From a virus (taxonomy: Duplodnaviria; Heunggongvirae; Uroviricota; Caudoviricetes): a stretch of DNA of 10,585 nucleotides. The notes under the pieces are model-generated. The model was not told the DNA's origin and searched no databases. It saw only the letters and a program-made list of their open reading frames with translations. The position numbers and the translations under genes were made by a program. The DNA lies in IMG/VR virus record IMGVR_UViG_2541047825_000014; one strand, given 5' to 3'. Of the stretch, positions 709-10,209 are shown piece after piece; position 1 is the first letter of the stretch; the number at the start of each line of letters is the position of its first letter.

Positions 709-3700
709 ATGGGTAAAGGCAGCAGTAAGGGGCATACCCCGCGCGAAGCGAAGGACAACCTGAAGTCCACGCAGTTGCTGAGTGTGATCGATGCCATCAG
801 CGAAGGGCCGGTTGAAGGTCCGGTGGATGGGTTAAAAAGCGTGCTGCTGAACAGTACGCCGGTGCTGGACAGTGAGGGGAATACCAATATATCCGGCGTC
901 ACGGTGGTGTTCCGGGCAGGTGAGCAGGAGCAGACTCCGCCGGAGGGGTTTGAATCCTCCGGTTCCGAGACGGTGCTGGGTACGGAAGTGAAATATGACA
1001 CGCCGATCACCCGCACCATCACGTCGGCAAACATCGACCGTCTGCGCTTTACCTTCGGTGTGCAGGCACTGGTGGAAACCACCTCAAAGGGGGACAGGAA
1101 TCCATCGGAAGTCCGCCTGCTGGTTCAGATACAGCGTAACGGTGGCTGGGTGACGGAAAAAGACATCACCATTAAGGGCAAAACCACCTCGCAGTATCTG
1201 GCCTCGGTGGTGGTGGATAACCTGCCGCCGCGCCCGTTTAATATCCGGATGCGCAGGATGACGCCGGACAGCACCACAGACCAGCTGCAGAACAAAACGC
1301 TCTGGTCGTCATACACCGAAATCATCGATGTGAAACAGTGCTACCCGAACACGGCACTGGTTGGCGTGCAGGTGGACTCGGAGCAGTTCGGCAGCCAGCA
1401 GGTGAGCCGTAATTATCATCTTCGCGGGCGCATTCTGCAGGTGCCGTCGAACTATAACCCGCAGACGCGGCAATACAGCGGTATCTGGGACGGAACGTTA
1501 AAACCGGCATACAGCAACAACATGGCCTGGTGTCTGTGGGATATGCTGACCCATCCGCGCTACGGCATGGGGAAACGTCTTGGTGCGGCGGATGTGGATA
1601 AATGGGCGCTGTATGTCATCGGCCAGAATTGCGACCAGTCGGTGCCGGACGGCTTTGGCGGCACGGAGCCGCGCATCACCTGTAACGCTTACCTGACCAC
1701 ACAGCGCAAGGCGTGGGATGTGCTCAGTGATTTCTGCTCGGCGATGCGCTGTATGCCGGTATGGAACGGGCAGACGCTGACGTTCGTGCAGGACCGACCA
1801 TCAGATAAGGTGTGGACCTATAACCGCAGTAATGTGGTGATGCCGGATGATGGCGCGCCGTTCCGCTACAGTTTCAGCGCCCTGAAGGACCGCCATAATG
1901 CCGTTGAGGTGAACTGGACTGACCCGGATAACGGCTGGGAAACGGCAACAGAGCTTGTGGAGGACACGCAGACCATTGCCCGTTACGGTCGTAACGTCAC
2001 GAAGATGGATGCCTTTGGCTGTACCAGCCGGGGGCAGGCACACAGAGCCGGGCTGTGGCTGATTAAAACGGAGCTGCTGGAAACGCAGACCGTGGATTTC
2101 AGCGTGGGCGCAGAAGGGCTTCGCCATGTACCGGGCGATGTCATTGAAATCTGCGATGATGACTATGCGGGTATCAGCACCGGTGGTCGTGTGCTGGCGG
2201 TGAACAGCCAGACCCGGACGCTGACGCTCGACCGTGAAATCACGCTGCCATCCTCCGGTACCACGCTGATAAGCCTGGTTGACGGAAATGGCAATCCGGT
2301 CAGCGTGGAGGTTCAGTCCGTCACCGACGGCGTGAAGGTAAAAGTGAGCCGTGTTCCTGACGGTGTTGCTGAATACAGCGTATGGGGGCTGAAGCTGCCG
2401 ACGCTGCGCCAGCGCCTGTTCCGCTGTGTGAGTATCCGTGAGAACGACGACGGCACGTATGCCATCACTGCCGTGCAGCATGTACCGGAGAAAGAAGCCA
2501 TCGTGGATAACGGGGCGCACTTTGACGGTGACCAGAGCGGCACGGTGAATGGTGTCACGCCGCCAGCGGTGCAGCACCTGACTGCCGAAGTCACCGCAGA
2601 CAGCGGGGAGTATCAGGTACTGGCCCGCTGGGACACGCCGAAGGTGGTGAAGGGCGTGAGCTTCCTGCTTCGCCTGACCGTGGCAGCGGACGACGGCAGT
2701 GAGCGGCTGGTCAGCACAGCCAGGACGACGGAAACCACATACCGCTTCAGGCAACTGGCGCTGGGGCGTTACACGCTGACGGTCCGGGCGGTAAATGCGT
2801 GGGGACAGCAGGGCGATCCGGCATCGGTATCGTTCCGGATTGCCGCACCGGCAGTGCCGTCGAGGATTGAGCTGACGCCGGGCTATTTTCAGATAACTGC
2901 CACGCCGCATCTTGCGGTTTATGATCCGACGGTACAGTTTGATTTCTGGTTCTCGGAAACGCGGATTACCGATATCAGGCAGGTTGAAACCACAGCCCGC
3001 TATCTTGGCACGGCGCTGTACTGGATAGCCGCCAGTATCAATATCAAACCGGGCCATGATTATTATTTTTACATCCGCAGTGTGAACACCGTTGGCAAAT
3101 CGGCATTTGTGGAGGCTGTTGGCCAGCCGAGTGATGATGCATCCGGCTATCTGGATTTTTTCAAAGGAGAGATAGGGAAAAGCCATCTGGCTCAGGAGCT
3201 GTGGACGCAGATTGATAACGGTCAGCTTGCGCCTGACCTGGCTGAAATCAGGACGTCCATTACGGATGTCAGCAATGAAATCACGCAGACCGTCAATAAG
3301 AAACTGGAAGACCAGAGTGCGGCAATTCAGCAGATACAGAAGGTTCAGGTTGATACAAATAATAACCTGAACAGCATGTGGGCTGTGAAGCTGCAGCAGA
3401 TGCAGGACGGACGCCTTTATATCGCGGGTATTGGTGCCGGTATTGAGAACACCCCTGACGGCATGCAGAGTCAGGTGCTGCTGGCGGCGGACAGGATTGC
3501 GATGGTTAATCCTGCGAATGGCAACACAAAGCCGATGTTTGTTGGTCAGGGCGATCAGATATTCATGAACGAAGTGTTCCTGAAATATCTGACGGCTCCC
3601 ACCATTACCAGCGGCGGTAATCCTCCGGCATTTTCCCTGACACCGGACGGGCGGCTGACGGCAAAAAATGCCGATATCAGCGGTAACGTGAATGCGAACT

Positions 3701-4188: not shown

Positions 4189-4206
4189 ATTTTATAACCC
4201 CAATAC

Positions 4207-4233
4207 GGGCGTCAGAAATGACGCCTTTTTTAT
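4207..4233 (+). terminator. Rho-independent terminator downstream of J
   Basis: GGCGTCA (4208-4214), loop GAAA, TGACGCC (4219-4225), followed by TTTTTT (4226-4231). Confidence 0.7.
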
Positions 4234-4255
4234 TGCAGAAAAGCGAGAGGTAATT

Positions 4256-4855
4256 ATGCGTAAATTATGTGCTGTTATTCTGTCCGCAGTAGTCTGGCTG
4301 GTTGCCGCTGGTACGCCAGCGAGCGCAGCAGAGCATCAGTCCACACTAAGCGCCGGGTATCTTCAGACCCATACTGATATGCCAGGCAGTGATGACCTGA
4401 AGGGCATTAACGTGAAATACCGTTATGAATTTACGGACACGCTGGGGCTGGTGACGTCATTCAGTTATGCCAATGCCAAAGATGAGCAAAAAACGCATTA
4501 CAGCGATACCCGCTGGCATGAAGATTCAGTGCGTAACCGCTGGTTCAGCGTGATGGCGGGGCCGTCTGTACGCGTGAATGAATGGTTCAGTGCTTATGCG
4601 ATGGCGGGTGTGGCTTACAGCCGTGTTTCGACGTTCTCCGGGGATTATCTCCGCGTAACTGACAACAAGGGGAAAACGCACGATGTGCTGACCGGAAGTG
4701 ATGACGGTCGCCACAGCGACACGTCTCTGGCATGGGGGGCTGGCGTGCAGTTTAACCCGACCGAATCCGTGGCCATTGATATTGCTTATGAAGGTTCCGG
4801 CAGTGGCGACTGGCGCACTGACGGTTTCATCGTTGGTGTCGGTTATAAATTCTGA
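4256..4855 (+). CDS. lom: Lom outer membrane protein (Ail/Lom/OmpX/PagC beta-barrel family); lysogenic-conversion moron
   Basis: 199-aa ORF with a signal peptide (MRKLCAVILSAVVWLVAAGTPASA) and a C-terminal GFIVGVGYKF beta-barrel terminus, recognised as lambda Lom. Ribosome-binding site GAGAGG at 4243-4248. Flanked by terminators on both sides. Confidence 0.95.
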   Translation: MRKLCAVILSAVVWLVAAGTPASAAEHQSTLSAGYLQTHTDMPGSDDLKGINVKYRYEFTDTLGLVTSFSYANAKDEQKTHYSDTRWHEDSVRNRWFSVMAGPSVRVNEWFSAYAMAGVAYSRVSTFSGDYLRVTDNKGKTHDVLTGSDDGRHSDTSLAWGAGVQFNPTESVAIDIAYEGSGSGDWRTDGFIVGVGYKF

Positions 4856-4881
4856 TTAGCCAGGTAACACAGTGTTATGAC

Positions 4882-4909
4882 AGCCCGCCGGTTCAGGCGG
4901 GCTTTTTTG
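4882..4909 (+). terminator. Rho-independent terminator downstream of lom
   Basis: AGCCCGCC (4882-4889), loop GGTTCA, GGCGGGCT (4896-4903), followed by TTTTTT (4903-4908). Confidence 0.7.
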
Positions 4910-4919
4910 TGGAGTGGAT

Positions 4920-6983
4920 ATGGCAGCAGTAAAAATCTCAGGTGTGCTGAAAGATGGTGCGGGAAAACCAATACAGAACTGCACTATTCAACTGAAGGCA
5001 AAGCGTAACAGCACCACGGTACTGGTCAACACAGTGGCCTCTGAAAATCCGGATGAAGCCGGGCGTTACAGCATGGATGTTGAGTATGGACAGTACAGCG
5101 TCACCCTGCTGGTTGAAGGTTTTCCGCCTTCACATGCCGGGACCATTACCGTCTATGAAGGTTCCAGACCAGGTACGCTGAATGATTTTCTCGGTGCCAT
5201 GACGGAAGATGATGTCATGCCGGAGGCATTGCGTCGTTTTGAGGAAATGGTGGAAGAAGCGGCACGCAACGCTGAAGCCGCCTCTCAGAGCGCAGCGGCA
5301 GCAAAGAAATCAGAAACAGCAGCGGCATCGTCCAGGAATGCGGCGAAAACATCAGAGACGAATGCAGGTAACAGCGCGAAAGCGGCAGCTTCTTCAAAAA
5401 CAGCCGCACAAAACGCAGCAACAGCGGCAGAACGTTCAGAGACAAATGCCCGTGCGTCAGAAGAAGCCTCCGCAGACAGTGAAGAGGCTTCCCGCCGTAA
5501 TGCAGAGTCAGCCGCTGAAAATGCCGGAGTCGCCACCACAAAAGCGCGGGAGGCCGCAGCAGACGCAACAAAGGCCGGGCAGAAAAAGGATGAGGCTCTG
5601 TCGGCAGCGACACGGGCTGAAAAGGCGGCAGACCGCGCAGAAGTCGCAGCGGAAGTGACTGCAGAGCCCTATGCGAATATAGTGCCGCCGCTGCCTGATG
5701 TGTGGATACCGTTTAACGATTCACTGGATATGATTGCGGGTTTTTCTCCGGGCTATAAAAAAATAGCTATTGGTGACGATGTGGTTCAGGTCGCCAGTGA
5801 TAAACAGGTTAATTTCAGTCGCGCATCAACGGCAACATATATCAACAAATCTGGCGAACTGAAAACGGCGGAAATTAATGAGCCGCGATTTGAGTGTGAT
5901 GGCCTGCTTATTGAGGGACAAAGAACGAACTACATGCTCAATTCGGAAAGTCCAGCCAGCTGGGGGAAGTCATCAAACATGGATGTGCCCGAAACCGGGA
6001 CGGATAGTTTTGGTTTTACTTATGGAAAGTTTGTCTGCAACGATTCTCTGGTTGGGCAAACTTCGGCTATTAATATGGCATCAATTGCTGCAACAAAGTC
6101 AGTTGATGTCTCAGGCGATAACAAGTACGTGACAACCTCATGCCGTTTTAAAACAGAACGACAGGTAAGGTTACGTATACGGTTTGATAAGTATGATGGT
6201 AGTGCAACAACTTTTCTTGGCGATGCGTACATTGATACGCAAACGCTTGAAATTAATATGACAGGTGGTGCTGCCGGCAGAATTACGGCACGAGTCAGGA
6301 AGGATAAGACCACAGGCTGGATTTTTGCAGAGGCAACGATTCAGGCAATTGATGGTGAGTTAAAAATAGGCTCTCAGATACAGTATTCTCCTGAGCAGGG
6401 TGGGGCAACAGTATCTGGTGACTATATTTATCTTGCCACCCCACAAGTAGAGAATGGGCCGTGTGTATCATCATTTATTATTTCAGGAGGCAGCGCAACG
6501 ACAAGAGCCAGTGATTTGGTTAGTATCCCCACCAGAAATAATCTTTATAAGTTACCATTTACTTTTTTACTTGAGATTCATAAAAACTGGGATATTGCAC
6601 CAAACGCCGCACCCCGCGTGTGGGATATAGCAGCAGCCAATACCGGGCAATCAGCAATTGCAGCAATCAACAGAGGTAGTGGTAAGTTATATATGAGTCT
6701 GTCAAACCCTTCAGGCTCGTATGTTAATAGCGCAGCGACAGATGTATTTGCAGAGAAAACCACATTTGGATGTATTGCAAAAGCTGATGGTCACTTTCAT
6801 GTGGTGACAAATGGTAAAGCGGTTAATGAAGTTTATTGTGAATATAATGGCGTGACCGCTGATAAAAATATCCGATTTGGAGGGCAGACGAATACTGGAG
6901 AACGACATCTGTTTGGCCATATTCGCAATTTCCGCATATGGCATAAAGAATTAAATGACAGGCAATTAAAAGAGGTCGTATGA
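4920..6983 (+). CDS. stf: Side tail fiber protein (Stf-like), mosaic: conserved N-terminal tail-attachment region, Ala-rich repetitive shaft, divergent AT-rich C-terminal putative receptor-binding domain
   Basis: ORF track gives 4914-6983 with a GTG start. I prefer the ATG at 4920 (product MAAVKISGVLKDG..., matching the lambda Stf N-terminus) with GGAG at 4911-4914. No tfa-like gene follows. Confidence 0.85.
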   Translation: MAAVKISGVLKDGAGKPIQNCTIQLKAKRNSTTVLVNTVASENPDEAGRYSMDVEYGQYSVTLLVEGFPPSHAGTITVYEGSRPGTLNDFLGAMTEDDVMPEALRRFEEMVEEAARNAEAASQSAAAAKKSETAAASSRNAAKTSETNAGNSAKAAASSKTAAQNAATAAERSETNARASEEASADSEEASRRNAESAAENAGVATTKAREAAADATKAGQKKDEALSAATRAEKAADRAEVAAEVTAEPYANIVPPLPDVWIPFNDSLDMIAGFSPGYKKIAIGDDVVQVASDKQVNFSRASTATYINKSGELKTAEINEPRFECDGLLIEGQRTNYMLNSESPASWGKSSNMDVPETGTDSFGFTYGKFVCNDSLVGQTSAINMASIAATKSVDVSGDNKYVTTSCRFKTERQVRLRIRFDKYDGSATTFLGDAYIDTQTLEINMTGGAAGRITARVRKDKTTGWIFAEATIQAIDGELKIGSQIQYSPEQGGATVSGDYIYLATPQVENGPCVSSFIISGGSATTRASDLVSIPTRNNLYKLPFTFLLEIHKNWDIAPNAAPRVWDIAAANTGQSAIAAINRGSGKLYMSLSNPSGSYVNSAATDVFAEKTTFGCIAKADGHFHVVTNGKAVNEVYCEYNGVTADKNIRFGGQTNTGERHLFGHIRNFRIWHKELNDRQLKEVV
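5260..5650 (+). repeat. Low-complexity Ala/Ser/Glu-rich degenerate repeats encoding the fiber shaft of Stf
   Basis: Translation contains repeated A-A-K/S-x-S-E-T-N/A-A motifs (AAKKSETAAASSRNAAKTSETNAGNSAKAAASSKTAAQNAATAAERSETNARASEEAS...). The GC-rich GCN-codon runs generate spurious overlapping ORFs on both strands. Confidence 0.6.
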
Positions 6984-7258
6984 AAGATTTAACTTTGAAG
7001 TTTCATGACAAACTGCAGTTTAAGGCCTTCCTGTCATCTCTTGGCTGGGCGGAAGATGAAGACCTCCAGAATAAACTGTTAGTTGATGAAATTGGTTTCA
7101 CCTACACAGAAACAGGGGTAACAGAAGAGGGAGAACCTGTCTGTATCCGGAATGATGGTTATTTTGTCAACATTCGCATTCTTGATGACTTGTTTGATGT
7201 TTCTGTATTCTCTGATTATGTCGTGGAGCTGGAAACACCGCTTCGGGAATGGAGCTGA
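6980..7258 (+). CDS. Hypothetical acidic 92-aa protein, translationally coupled to stf
   Basis: The ATG at 6980 overlaps the stf stop (ATGA at 6980-6983). AGAGG at 6971-6975. No signal peptide or TM segment. No family recognised. Confidence 0.55.
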   Translation: MKDLTLKFHDKLQFKAFLSSLGWAEDEDLQNKLLVDEIGFTYTETGVTEEGEPVCIRNDGYFVNIRILDDLFDVSVFSDYVVELETPLREWS

Positions 7259-7270
7259 AAGGAGGAAATA

Positions 7271-7558
7271 ATGGATATAAGCCCCTTACTTCATGCACTT
7301 TGTGCTGTGGCTGCGCAGATACTGGTTGGTCTTTTTACCGGAAACTGGGCTTACGGAGCGATAGCCGGTTGTACGTTCTTCATTGCGCGTGAACATACCC
7401 AGGCAGAATATCGCTGGATTGAAATGTTCGGGCATGGCAAGCGAATGAATATGCCGTGGTGGGGCGGTTTTGATCCGCGTGCTTGGGATGTGGCAAGCCT
7501 GATGGATTTTGCTGTGCCGGTGGTGGCGTGTCTGCTGATCTGGATGTTGATCCGTTAA
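7271..7558 (+). CDS. Hypothetical small membrane protein (95 aa, two predicted TM helices)
   Basis: Strong ribosome-binding site GGAGGA at 7261-7266, 5 nt before the ATG. Hydrophobic N-terminal segment (LLHALCAVAAQILVGLFTG...AIAGCTFFIA) and C-terminal segment (FAVPVVACLLIWMLI), with a Trp-rich loop (NMPWWGGFDPRAWD). No family recognised. Confidence 0.6.
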   Translation: MDISPLLHALCAVAAQILVGLFTGNWAYGAIAGCTFFIAREHTQAEYRWIEMFGHGKRMNMPWWGGFDPRAWDVASLMDFAVPVVACLLIWMLIR

Positions 7559-7573
7559 ATATAAAAAGTAAAA

Positions 7574-7609
7574 AGCCGCAGTAACTTGTCATGATAGGAT
7601 ACTGCGGCT
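7574..7609 (-). terminator. Hairpin likely terminating the minus-strand dinI-like transcript (possibly bidirectional)
   Basis: AGCCGCAGTA (7574-7583) and TACTGCGGCT (7600-7609) are reverse complements with a 16-nt loop. On the minus strand the hairpin is followed by TTTTTACTTTTTAT (complement of 7561-7573). There is no T-run on the + strand. Confidence 0.45.
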
Positions 7610-7675
7610 GGCTGGTTAACTTTCGATAGTGCGAGTATTGAATGATTTCCAGCCGTTACTGATTTTACGTGCTAA

Positions 7676-7924
7676 TTAGTGAACAAACCACTCATCAGCA
7701 GACTCCCAGGTATCTTTCAGAGTTTCCTGAACAAAAGTTTTAGCTGAATCTTTATCGGCGGTGCGCGTAACAGAAAGGCCATCGTTGCTGGTGGCTTTTA
7801 CGATCACCTCTACATCGTCATAACGTTTACTGATGCGTCGGGTTAATTCTTCCTTTAACGCATCCACAGCACCGTTTGGCATTTTAGTCATTTTTTCTTT
7901 GGCTATGCAGATCTCAATACGCAT
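7676..7924 (-). CDS. DinI-family DNA-damage-inducible protein (prophage-encoded DinI-like)
   Basis: 82-aa [38 protein letters not shown]...[11 protein letters not shown] with the characteristic DinI N-terminus and acidic C-terminal TWESAD(D/E)WF motif. GAGGGA ribosome-binding site upstream. Confidence 0.9.
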
Positions 7925-7937
7925 AAAAGTCCCTCTA

Positions 7938-7989
7938 TACTGTGTTTGTATACAGTGTTATTTTTAACTGTATGGATAAACAGTGTCAA
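7938..7989 (-). promoter_or_regulatory. SOS-regulated sigma70 promoter of the dinI-like gene with two tandem LexA boxes
   Basis: Two CTGT-N8-ACAG motifs: box 1 TACTGTGTTTGTATACAGTG (7938-7957) and box 2 AACTGTATGGATAAACAGTG (7966-7985). On the minus strand a perfect -35 TTGACA (complement of 7984-7989) abuts box 2, and a -10-like TAAAAA lies 17 nt downstream (complement of 7961-7966). The -35 overlaps the integrase stop codon. Confidence 0.7.
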
Positions 7990-9083
7990 GAGGTCTTATT
8001 TCTGCTCCTTTGGAGCTCTTCAAAACGATTATGTAAAGATTTCGGATACAGTTCGGTATATACCTGCCATAGCACGTTTAATGAACGATGCCCTGTAACC
8101 TGAGCGACTTCCTCAATACTAAAACCAGCCTCAAATAAGCGACTTGCCCCTTCTCTACGCAAATCATGGTATCGCAGATCTTTAATACCTAATTTGCTTC
8201 TTACCCTCTGAAATCCTGCAGTAACAGAAGTGCTGTTATATGGAAAAATGAATTCCGATTTTTTGGGCTGTCGTTGGACGATATCCCAGGCTTCCCCAAG
8301 CAAGGCTACTTTCATGTGGTTGCCTTCCTTTTTGCGTGGATCTTTCCTGTCTCTTACGAGTATAGATTTTTGTTCCTGGTCGAGATCTTCCCATCGTAAC
8401 CGGCATACTTCTCCGATCCGCATACAGGACCACACAGAAAATTTGAGGATATCAACGAACGGAATTTTTGAGCATTTATGAGTAGATCGTTGTTGAAGGC
8501 CTTCAATGAGCATGTCCAGTTCATCAGATGCTGGTCTACGATTACGACGGTTTGATTTACCAATCAAACCAAGTTTAAGTAGATATGGGCGAGCGCTTTT
8601 CGCCGGGTTTGATGTGTAATTAATTCCGTATACAGGTTTGGCCGCATCCAGAACACTGCCAAGATAACTAACATCGTGGCTGACTGTTGCTGGACCTGCA
8701 CCAGCGTTGTTTCTTAGCCTGCAATGTTCAATTACGTCATTTTCTGTCAGTTCAGATAGTTTGATCGCGGAGATGTCACTATCCATAAGCAGTTCCAGCA
8801 CATATCTTTTAGTACGGCCTGCTTTACCTCCGGCATTTGGGTCATTTAAATATTTGTGTAGTAAGTCACGGACTGTAAGTCCGTCAACTGCATTTGATGA
8901 TGGAATGCCATATAGATCTAATTCCATCACTTTCTGTGTTCCCCATGTTTTGGCATGAGCATGTTTAGGGAATGTTTTGCTTTCCCTGTAAGTGATAACA
9001 CCTTTTTCTTTGATAATCACATTACAGCGATAGCGTGGTGTGCCATCGGATTTTAGTCGTTTCTCTATGTTATAGTACGCCAT
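7986..9083 (-). CDS. int: Phage integrase, tyrosine site-specific recombinase family
   Basis: 365-aa ORF. The C-terminal catalytic region carries R...HxxR...Y hallmarks (RYHDLRREGASRLFEAG...VTGHRSLNVLWQVYTEL). It diverges from dusA with an 88-bp intergenic spacer. Confidence 0.93.
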   Translation of the reverse strand: MAYYNIEKRLKSDGTPRYRCNVIIKEKGVITYRESKTFPKHAHAKTWGTQKVMELDLYGIPSSNAVDGLTVRDLLHKYLNDPNAGGKAGRTKRYVLELLMDSDISAIKLSELTENDVIEHCRLRNNAGAGPATVSHDVSYLGSVLDAAKPVYGINYTSNPAKSARPYLLKLGLIGKSNRRNRRPASDELDMLIEGLQQRSTHKCSKIPFVDILKFSVWSCMRIGEVCRLRWEDLDQEQKSILVRDRKDPRKKEGNHMKVALLGEAWDIVQRQPKKSEFIFPYNSTSVTAGFQRVRSKLGIKDLRYHDLRREGASRLFEAGFSIEEVAQVTGHRSLNVLWQVYTELYPKSLHNRFEELQRSRNKTS

Positions 9084-9101
9084 TACACGACCTCGTTATT
9101 T

Positions 9102-9139
9102 CGGGTTCCCATAAAACGTGGGAACCTGTGCGGGAACCT
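9102..9139. repeat. Three copies of a GGGAACC/GGGTTCCC heptamer (one inverted, two direct) in the int-dusA intergenic region; candidate integrase or regulator binding sites or att-associated repeats
   Basis: cGGGTTCCCataaaacgtGGGAACCtgtgcGGGAACCtaacg read directly from the sequence. Confidence 0.4.
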
Positions 9140-9171
9140 AACGCGAGAAAAATAGCCTGAAATGTTCAAAA

Positions 9172-10209
9172 ATGCACGATAATCATGAAACACAAAAAAT
9201 TAATCAAACCAGCGTGATGCCTGAAAAAACTGGTGTTTACTGGAATTCTCGGTTTAGCATTGCTCCTATGCTTGACTGGACGGACAGACATTGCCGTTAT
9301 TTCTTGCGTCTGCTTTCCCGCAATACGTTGTTGTATACCGAAATGGTGACCACAGGGGCGATTATTCACGGTAAAGGTGATTACCTGGCGTACAGTGAAG
9401 AAGAACATCCGGTAGCGTTGCAACTCGGGGGTAGCGATCCGGCGGCGCTGGCACAGTGTGCGAAGCTGGCAGAAGCGCGTGGATATGATGAGATCAACCT
9501 GAATGTCGGCTGCCCGTCTGACCGGGTGCAGAACGGCATGTTTGGTGCGTGTCTGATGGGTAATGCGCAGCTGGTTGCCGACTGCGTGAAAGCGATGCGC
9601 GATGTGGTGTCGATTCCGGTGACGGTGAAAACGCGTATTGGCATCGATGATCAGGACAGCTATGAATTTCTCTGCGATTTCATCAACACCGTTTCCGGCA
9701 AAGGTGAGTGTGAGATGTTCATCATCCACGCACGTAAAGCCTGGCTTTCTGGGTTAAGTCCGAAAGAAAACCGTGAGATCCCGCCTCTCGATTATCCGCG
9801 TGTGTATCAACTGAAGCGTGACTTTCCGCATCTGACGATGTCGATTAACGGTGGTATCAAGTCGCTGGAAGAAGCTAAAGCGCATTTGCAACATATGGAT
9901 GGCGTGATGGTCGGGCGCGAGGCGTATCAGAATCCGGGTATTCTGGCGGCGGTAGACCGAGAGATTTTTGGTTCCTCGGATACCGATGCCGATCCGGTGG
10001 CGGTAGTGCGCGCCATGTATCCGTACATTGAGCGTGAACTCAGCCAGGGTACGTATCTCGGCCATATTACCCGGCATATGCTGGGCTTGTTCCAGGGTAT
10101 TCCTGGCGCGCGGCAGTGGCGGCGTTATTTAAGTGAAAATGCCCATAAAGCGGGTGCAGACATTAATGTGCTGGAACACGCGCTCAAACTGGTGGCGGAT
10201 AAGCGTTAA
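9172..10209 (+). CDS. dusA: tRNA-dihydrouridine synthase A (DusA)
   Basis: 345-aa ORF with a Dus-family TIM-barrel signature ([17 protein letters not shown]...NLNVGCPS...). The exact start is uncertain: the ATG at 9172 has no clear ribosome-binding site, and an in-frame alternative lies at 9217. The first ~150 nt are notably AT-rich compared with the rest of the gene. Confidence 0.9.

Follow-up and report, generated by a model that had tools for sequence, protein, structure and literature searches.

The stretch of DNA analysed here (10,585 bases in full, termed the window) began in the late (tail) genes of a lambdoid prophage and ran on into the bacterial chromosome. Its features were arranged as follows.

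1-648: tail assembly protein I, phage part
709-4188: tip attachment protein J, phage part, intact ORF
4256-4855: Lom, phage part, intact ORF
4914-6983: side tail fibre (stf), phage part, intact ORF
6980-7258 and 7271-7558: two small ORFs without family matches
7676-7924, minus strand: dinI-like gene with a Pfam DinI match, the last phage cargo gene before int
7986-9083, minus strand (ATG at 9083-9081): integrase gene (int), 365 aa, a DusA-associated, Rci-like tyrosine recombinase
9084-9171: int-dusA intergenic region, phage-derived, the P arm of attP
9104-9111, minus strand, and 9119-9126 and 9132-9139, plus strand: three GGGAACC repeats, candidate arm-type integrase sites
9172-10209, plus strand: dusA ORF (Pfam Dus, E 8e-105; NCBIfam DusA TIGR00742, 581 bits)
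9172-9267, plus strand: phage-donated 5' end of dusA, codons 1-32, assigned by identity to phage attP
9259-9285: imperfect att repeat ATTGCTCCTATGCTTGACTGGACGGAC, 27 bp, from alignments of attL, attR, attB and attP
9268-9275: identity core ATGCTTGA, 8 bp, holding the strand-exchange site
9276-10209, plus strand: host-derived remainder of dusA, in frame with the phage-donated start
from 10343: pspG, chromosomal, beyond dusA

The order dinI-int-attP was common to phages mEp460 and SKA5, a plasmid insertion and the lysogens A24 and TUM13754, and the dinI-like gene travels with this module. An ORF check placed int and dusA divergently with a gap of 88 bp (9084-9171 exactly), as an earlier note on this DNA had described, and ARAGORN returned 0 tRNA or tmRNA genes in the whole window, in agreement with that note's statement that no tRNA gene separates the two. 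The AT-rich beginning of dusA that it had reported was also real, but the length of ~150 nt was too long; the anomalous stretch covered 96 nt (9172-9267). The GC content of this stretch was 37.5%, while 96-nt windows in the rest of dusA averaged 54.0% (sd 4.7), giving a z-score of -3.5, and 0/839 windows from the host part were as low. The first 150 nt of dusA showed 42.7% GC because ~50 nt of that interval is already host DNA.

We interpreted positions 9084-9330 as containing the junction on the int side of a lambdoid prophage that entered E. coli dusA site-specifically, about 100 bases into the 5' end of the gene, and we place the probability of this reading at approximately 0.97. In the orientation of the window, the int-proximal junction is the right end (attR); the same junction was called attL in PMC6328086. 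The interval had been proposed to hold both the att core and a phage-donated N-terminus, and both were located within it: positions 9268-9275 form the core, and 9172-9267 are the coding part supplied by the phage. The donated coding stretch spanned ~96-104 nt and not ~150 nt.

Bases 8700-9900 were searched against 5426 complete E. coli genomes, with an occupied junction defined by at least 80% query coverage. Every genome matched, in three patterns. An occupied int-dusA junction was detected in 740 of the 5426 genomes, and an integrase was annotated in all six rows listed at or above 80% coverage (H1-H6). In the K-12-like pattern, represented by many genomes, the match began only at ~9169, with roughly 95% overall; in the MS20654-like pattern, likewise represented by many genomes, it began only at 9259, at 99%. 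Among the listed matches that lacked an integrase, none started before ~9165-9169, the others starting at 9259. One record, pOHT76-1_1 (H81), was rejected as a case of plasmid carriage, as it holds the chromosomal dnaB-qorA-pspG-dusA region.

The alignment to unoccupied dusA loci that the earlier note had proposed thus gave an identity break, which was sharp at 9259-9268 with native-type alleles. With K-12-type alleles the break was blurred, their similarity to the phage-borne 5' end being 82% from 9169 on. The position of the break depended on the kind of empty allele, and caution is warranted in annotation, as the apparent break varies with the empty allele chosen.

Anchored, ungapped comparisons were used to assign the phage and host sides of the junction. 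Positions 9084-9168 matched attP of mEp460 at 85/85 positions and attP of SKA5 at 84/85, versus only 22-34% for both kinds of empty site. Positions 9169-9267 matched attP of SKA5 at 99/99 positions and that of mEp460 at 93%, versus 82% for K-12 dusA and 38% for native-type dusA. To the right of 9275, identity to SKA5 and mEp460 fell to 33-35%. The opposite pattern was observed for the empty-site dusA of MS20654, to which 9268-10209 was 99.7% identical and 9084-9267 only 34-38%. In a search of a phage database, identity to ten phage genomes stopped at window positions 9272-9277. As the sequence was phage-type to the left and host-type to the right of this block, the exchange point therefore lay within ATGCTTGA at 9268-9275, and since phage DNA ran through 9267, the phage contributed both the 88-bp upstream region and dusA codons 1-32. 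The prophage boundary is now fixed to 8 bp, which is useful for annotation.

These comparisons also bear on whether the 5' end of dusA could be a divergent native allele related to that of K-12, with the true att site elsewhere, for example to the left of int. The 82% identity of K-12-type empty alleles to 9169-9267, and their similarly long N-terminus, would fit such an allele. However, the stretch was 100% identical to attP of SKA5 and ended exactly at the core, and in free phages it continued into DNA found at attL. Among the listed matches from the 5426 genomes searched, this 5' end and its upstream region did not occur in any unoccupied genome, and, within a single species, divergence from K-12 was 18-19% at the 5' end and 3% in the gene body. 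The exact match to free-phage attP, together with the structure of attL, excluded a native allele, and we assign it a negligible likelihood.

The core ATGCTTGA was common, without mismatch, to attR in the window, attL in A24 and TUM13754, and native attB. The surrounding 27-bp repeat (9259-9285) matched attL at 21/27 positions, and window positions 9262-9280 matched the published attB of C. rodentium (PMC6328086) at 17/19. The same int-attP module was inserted in parB of plasmid pEND_Eco18005, where phage identity stopped at 9271. This insertion is a secondary site, at which the same phage end was joined to an unrelated gene.

A fixed core is relevant to a further explanation, namely that the phage-type 5' end was gained by homologous recombination or gene conversion and not by integrase-mediated recombination. 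The ~100 nt of 82% similarity between phage-borne and K-12-type 5' ends would fit such an exchange. The host of this prophage was native-type, however, with a dusA body 99.7% identical to that of MS20654, and a native-type 5' end has only 38% similarity to the phage copy. The break coincided with the 8-bp core of attL, attR and native attB, which is the experimentally mapped site, and the parB insertion joined the same phage end to a gene with which it is unrelated. Homologous exchange was excluded because the native-type 5' end lacks similarity and the junction falls at a fixed core, leaving it hardly any plausibility. Site-specific integration at the core was thereby retained as the explanation of the junction.

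The left prophage end lies outside the window, and attL was therefore read from two relatives, A24, which was 100% identical over 8700-9900, and TUM13754, which was 99.0% identical over 4200-9330. The earlier note had suggested searching the other prophage end for a direct-repeat copy, and one was found in both lysogens beside the displaced native 5' end of dusA. Next to zur, attL consisted of the native promoter, codons 1-18 of native dusA, ATGCTTGA and then TAGGATGTACCG... (TAGGATGTACCGTTTTTGAAAAAC...). Both free phages, mEp460 and SKA5, continue past their core with exactly the sequence that follows it at attL (TAGGATGTACCGTTTTTGAAAAAC...). The distance between the attL and attR cores was 46.7 kb in A24 and 44.3 kb in TUM13754.

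A contiguous attP was present in the free phages mEp460 and SKA5, its left half corresponding to window positions 9084-9275 and its right half to the phage side of attL. The attL, attR, attP and attB sequences agreed, so that recombination of attP with attB yields the observed attL and attR, save for one core base. The core was ATGCTCGA in both free phages read (SKA5 and mEp460) versus ATGCTTGA at both junctions of native-type lysogens, a one-base difference between the sequences compared that a simple exchange does not explain. Synthetic chimeric attL queries, at a threshold of at least 80% coverage, identified 663 genomes with a K-12-type flank and 80 with a native-type flank, and these 743 attL-positive genomes agreed with the 740 occupied right junctions. 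Approximately 14% of complete E. coli genomes were lysogenised at the dusA site, comprising 15% of K-12-type and 7% of native-type hosts.

The integrase matched Pfam Phage_integrase over residues 189-346 (E 1e-20) and was 98.6% identical to the integrase of phage mEp460. Residues R222, K252, H306, R309, H332 and Y342 were invariant in an alignment with Rci, the IncI1 shufflon recombinase, and two further integrases encoded beside dusA. Identity of the integrase to Rci was 26% over residues 75-365 (BLASTP, E 3e-21). A tblastn search against plasmids gave about 2300 matches at roughly 26% identity; the one inspected was an IncI1 recombinase, identified as Rci because it adjoins the pilV shufflon. 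No curated NCBIfam family was found for the integrase, the NCBIfam comparison giving only Xer and integron matches far below threshold. In Kosakonia, Phytobacter, Pluralibacter and Intestinirhabdus, a related integrase (64-83% identical) was located in the same divergent position, ahead of a long-type dusA start.

The P arm held the only three copies of GGGAACC in the 10.6-kb window, all within 35 bp, and two further copies were found in the P' arm of attP (L006 2833-2852), 50-70 bp past the core. Counting both arms, the core was flanked by five TGGGAACC-like repeats, of which the P arm contributed three and the P' arm two. The count of GGGAACC alone was weak, with 3 observed versus 0.96 expected and 19/200 shuffles reaching 3. 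The repeats were kept in the Kosakonia and Phytobacter elements, whose integrases were 82-83% identical, and the Pluralibacter element, with an integrase 70% identical, carried another repeat, GGTACACC/TGGTGT, at the same positions. The repeats thus appear to co-vary with integrase divergence, as expected of protein-binding sites co-evolving with a recombinase, and their clustering, presence in both arms and conservation or co-variation suggest that they are candidate arm-type Int sites. The integrase also had an N-terminal extension of ~70 aa, missing in Rci. Heterobivalent (lambda-Int-like) integrases combine an N-terminal arm-binding domain with repeated arm sites to either side of the core, and the window integrase may be of that kind.

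From these comparisons, a mechanism of integration can be proposed. In the free phage, attP runs from int through the 88-bp P arm, where three of the GGGAACC repeats lie, and the 96-nt mimic of the dusA start to the 8-bp core, beyond which the P' arm has two more copies. Strand exchange by the tyrosine integrase, an Rci-like enzyme, takes place inside the core ATGCT(T/C)GA, leaving the native promoter and the first 18 dusA codons at the far prophage end, beside zur. The phage-borne start of 32 codons is joined in frame to the remainder of dusA, and by this in-frame fusion a full-length ORF of 345 aa is kept. Insertion into the 5' end of dusA by a DusA-associated integrase, with supply of a replacement start, had been put forward for this locus beforehand, and the comparisons of attP, attB and attL supported it. 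The reconstruction of attP x attB, the family of the integrase and the intact fused ORF were established here at the level of sequence. Excision and integration dependent on Int would be expected by analogy, as they were reported for a module 97.7% identical to this one (PMC6328086).

Whether the junction is still functional is a separate matter. The prophage could be defective and no longer able to excise, leaving the site as a scar. The attL, regulatory and excision genes lie outside the window, so that activity cannot be read from it, and in relatives the tail-fibre region beside int has annotated pseudogene fragments. Furthermore, about half of the dusA-specific islands reported by Farrugia et al. 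(PMC4482086) were islands or phage remnants and not lysogenic prophages. Against a defective prophage, int was full length with all catalytic residues present, the core and P arm were 99-100% identical to those of the isolated phages SKA5 and mEp460, and the window's ORFs for J, lom and stf were intact. Relatives also held complete prophages of 44-47 kb, with the attL core equal to the attR core in each. A defective prophage is accordingly rather unlikely, and this particular prophage probably still excises, as far as can be judged from its int, core and arm.

The dusA gene in the window is chimeric, part phage and part host; it is neither disrupted nor purely native. The fused ORF was intact at 345 aa, with full-length matches to the Dus and DusA profiles (Pfam and NCBIfam). 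The core encoded the Met-Leu-Asp of the motif APMLDWTD, which was invariant in 85/85 dusA loci examined across Enterobacteriaceae, and the Pfam Dus domain began at residue 30, where the core lies. In the free phage, a stop codon ended the dusA mimic nine codons past those of the core. Native DusA has 331 aa, and the phage-type ORF, if read from Met16 (MPEKTG...), would have 330 aa with a similar MP-E start; the start codon of the phage-type ORF is thus uncertain. Neither a consensus scan nor a relaxed one (at least 8/12 positions) found a sigma-70 promoter for dusA on the plus strand of 9000-9175, and the sole match was a weak minus-strand site at 9207-9179, facing int. Expression of the fused dusA is accordingly putative, as is its activity.

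Two resident dusA starts were observed in E. coli, and these partitioned the 5426 genomes exactly, into 1123 native-type and 4303 K-12-type (79%). The native short start (M..ES....PA[HY]RFSI), unrelated in sequence to the K-12 one, was present in 67 of the 79 other-species loci sampled (L009-L087), including E. albertii, cryptic Escherichia clades, Citrobacter, Klebsiella, Enterobacter and Kluyvera, and the same short start was found in B2-type E. coli (empty-site MS20654). The K-12-type start was long (MHGNSEMQKINQTSAMPEKTDVHWSGRFSV); it was 81-82% identical to the phage-borne start of the window and 84-86% identical to the start of a Kosakonia element. Divergence between the 5' end and the gene body was discordant: between K-12 and the window, the 5' ends were 81% and the bodies 97% identical, and between K-12 and Kosakonia S29, the 5' ends were 84% and the bodies 80% identical. 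K-12 carried a 1686-bp insert with yjbL and yjbM, which replaced a 133-bp segment made up of the native promoter and 5' end. Long-type starts stood beside a related integrase in Kosakonia, Phytobacter, Pluralibacter and Intestinirhabdus, and beside accessory genes in other loci, namely toxin-antitoxin modules (Superficieibacter and Silvania) and an isochorismatase (one Kosakonia locus). In a further Kosakonia locus (L065), the long start had no ORF of at least 70 aa in roughly 500 bp upstream.

The K-12-type start is most economically read as a fossil, and on sequence grounds we find it fairly probable that this start is the leftover 5' end of an older dusA-integrating element that has since been mostly deleted. 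Several results weigh against it. Upstream of K-12 dusA, tblastn recovered no integrase remnant, its one match, over eight residues (3-10 of int), being not significant (E = 13), and the K-12 region upstream of the dusA ATG was unrelated to the phage P arm (22% identity). A tblastn search with the yjbM (DUF2713) product gave no match among 50,697 phage records, which leaves nothing to link the cargo of the putative fossil to phages. A remnant attL was not found in K-12, where the native 133-bp segment was absent and not displaced, and the fossil reading therefore requires an extra deletion.

If the K-12-type start does derive from such an element, the N-terminus and promoter of the reference E. 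coli DusA would be of mobile-element origin. In one review, 'yjbM', 'zur' and 'dusA' are entered as three distinct insertion sites of Stx phages. These are probably one site, named from the left-flanking gene in two host backgrounds, and the two host configurations of the dusA site would explain the three names in the literature. The fossil reading, if true, would likewise make the 'yjbM', 'zur' and 'dusA' sites of the STEC literature a single site in two host backgrounds.

The junction can be compared with systems already described. Farrugia et al. (2015, NAR, PMC4482086) reported DusA-associated integrases (DAI) that are divergent from dusA, with elements that enter the 5' end of the gene and donate a new 5' end. 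The elements were flanked by ~21 bp semiconserved imperfect direct repeats within dusA, and the integrases were tyrosine recombinases whose closest characterised relative was Rci, without the C-terminal extension of Rci (PMC4482086). Every feature of the DAI family testable in silico was displayed by the element in the window. Its integrase was a tyrosine recombinase with the RHRH tetrad and nucleophilic Tyr, related to Rci and missing the C-terminal extension, as judged from the plasmid tblastn and NCBIfam comparisons. The int gene was divergent from dusA at 88 bp, with the phage genes dinI, stf, lom, J and I beyond it. The 5' end of dusA was swapped in frame, the original 5' end being at the far junction in A24 and TUM13754, and imperfect direct repeats lay in dusA (27 bp, 21/27, with an 8-bp exact core). 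Membership also followed by sequence through the mEp460 integrase (98.6%), which Farrugia et al. listed among the DAI homologues (PMC4482086); the A. baumannii reference is AGH34419. Eight E. coli entries are given in their Table S1 (PMC4482086), and the two read here were phage lysogens. The DAI models D1279779_RGP05 of A. baumannii and Prophage 03 of P. protegens Pf-5, compared by description, shared the same plan but differed in belonging to other genera and in having att sites of 26-28 bp.

More distant systems shared parts of this arrangement. Rci of IncI1 plasmids has the catalytic domain of the window integrase, with an identical R-H-R-H-Y set, but it inverts shufflon segments, lacks the ~70-aa N-terminal extension and has an extra C-terminal extension of ~90 aa. 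Vibrio SGI1-related genomic islands are also reported to target dusA (PMC8409611); as described there, these islands are mobilizable and dependent on IncC plasmids, unlike lambdoid phages, and the likeness is one of description. The lambdoid phage mEp460 (JQ182728 / NC_019716) was closer, with the same type of integrase, a P arm matching at 85/85 positions and the same dinI-int-attP order. It differed in being a free phage with an attP and not a junction, in a dusA' mimic of 93% identity and in its core, ATGCTCGA.

The closest experimental counterpart was the Stx2 phage 1720a-02 (Phi-stx2dact, KF030445.1), whose int-attP module was 97.7% identical over 7986-9276. This phage integrates 100 bp into dusA of C. 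rodentium through a 21-bp motif with a 7-base core, its phage-borne dusA' ORF is fused in frame, and formation of attP requires int (PMC6328086). The AttP R primer of that study matched window positions 9103-9122 exactly, as the phage-specific 3' part of its PCR Primer 3 matched 9236-9267. Phage 1720a-02 differed in carrying stx2dact, where this window has no stx gene, and in its host species, and the C. rodentium attB had C at two positions where the window has T. Both the junction and its mechanism are confirmed as already known, having been described since 2015 and experimentally verified for this near-identical module. The junction by itself adds nothing new to the biology of DusA-associated integrases; relative to these systems, the reading of the K-12 dusA start as a fossil is the only part that might be new.

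The dinI-int-attP module (window 7676-9275) shared 98-99% identity between lambdoid phages (the window and mEp460) and SKA5, whose 37.6-kb genome encodes a GpH-type tail fibre as well as a DNA invertase. Identity at this level across the lambdoid phages and SKA5 indicated that the integration module moves between unrelated phage backbones. The same module was found on plasmid pEND_Eco 18005 (L001, NZ_CP126947.1), in a phage that interrupts parB and encodes a DNA invertase along with tail genes of the baseplate type (gp46/gp47-like). At this site (L001 6472-6591) the phage sequence could be followed as far as ...CCTATGC, which corresponds to window 9271, and the adjoining plasmid sequence agreed with attB at 12 of 20 positions; parB was apparently disrupted through secondary-site integration. 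A further record, pOHT76-1_1 (NZ_CP135245.1, 373 kb), is labelled a non-mobilizable plasmid and contained the chromosomal dnaB-qorA-pspG-dusA-int region (L089 1-4098). Rather than a plasmid, this record probably represents a misassembly or a piece of the chromosome.

A one-base polymorphism was located within the core, at window 9273, at position 2788 in both mEp460 (L005) and SKA5 (L006), and at 1383 in lysogen A24 (L004). The core read ATGCTCGA in the free phages SKA5 and mEp460 and in the K-12-type attB, and ATGCTTGA in the native-type attB and in both junctions of native-type lysogens. Had a C-type attP simply recombined with a T-type attB, C would be expected at one of the two junctions. 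The T at both was either present in the integrating phage from the outset or produced by repair of the mismatch.

The two attB types correspond to two resident dusA 5' ends, into which the 5426 E. coli genomes divided exactly, 4303 being K-12-type and 1123 native-type. The regions compared were as follows:

L002 (E. coli K-12 ER2796) 1406-3099, K-12-type dusA 5' region
L003 (MS20654, an empty site) 2869-3009, native-type counterpart

The K-12-type start was accompanied by the yjbL/yjbM insert and was 82-86% identical to element-borne dusA starts, while the native-type start was the type found in most other Enterobacteriaceae sampled. The K-12 dusA start looks like a fossil left by an older dusA-integrating element. 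To its left, a dusA prophage has yjbM when the host is of the K-12 type (compare ER2796, L002) and zur when it is of the native type (lysogen A24, L004). A review listed yjbM, zur, and dusA as separate insertion sites of Stx phages (PMC8065619); these are probably a single site under three names.

Elsewhere in the window, two small open reading frames lay between the side tail fibre gene and dinI:

6980-7258, plus strand, small ORF of 92 aa
7271-7558, plus strand, small ORF of 95 aa

A Pfam search of both returned no match, and their counterparts in lysogen TUM13754 were annotated as hypothetical proteins in RefSeq. By eye, the 95-aa product was hydrophobic, with the look of a membrane protein. 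Inside the side tail fibre gene, A strongly exceeded T at 5200-5700 (AT skew 0.41-0.56), a stretch encoding alanine/glutamate/lysine-rich low complexity (residues ~100-260) flanked by a phage_tail_N domain and a C-terminal lectin-like domain.

Outside the window, both related prophages carried a PrtN-family gene close to their attL end:

L004 (lysogen A24) 2889-3170, PrtN-family (pyocin activator) gene
L090 (lysogen TUM13754) 13516-13797, PrtN-family (pyocin activator) gene

The gene is a candidate for a role in excision or regulation. According to Farrugia et al., 64% of dusA-specific islands carry a prtN homologue (PMC4482086).
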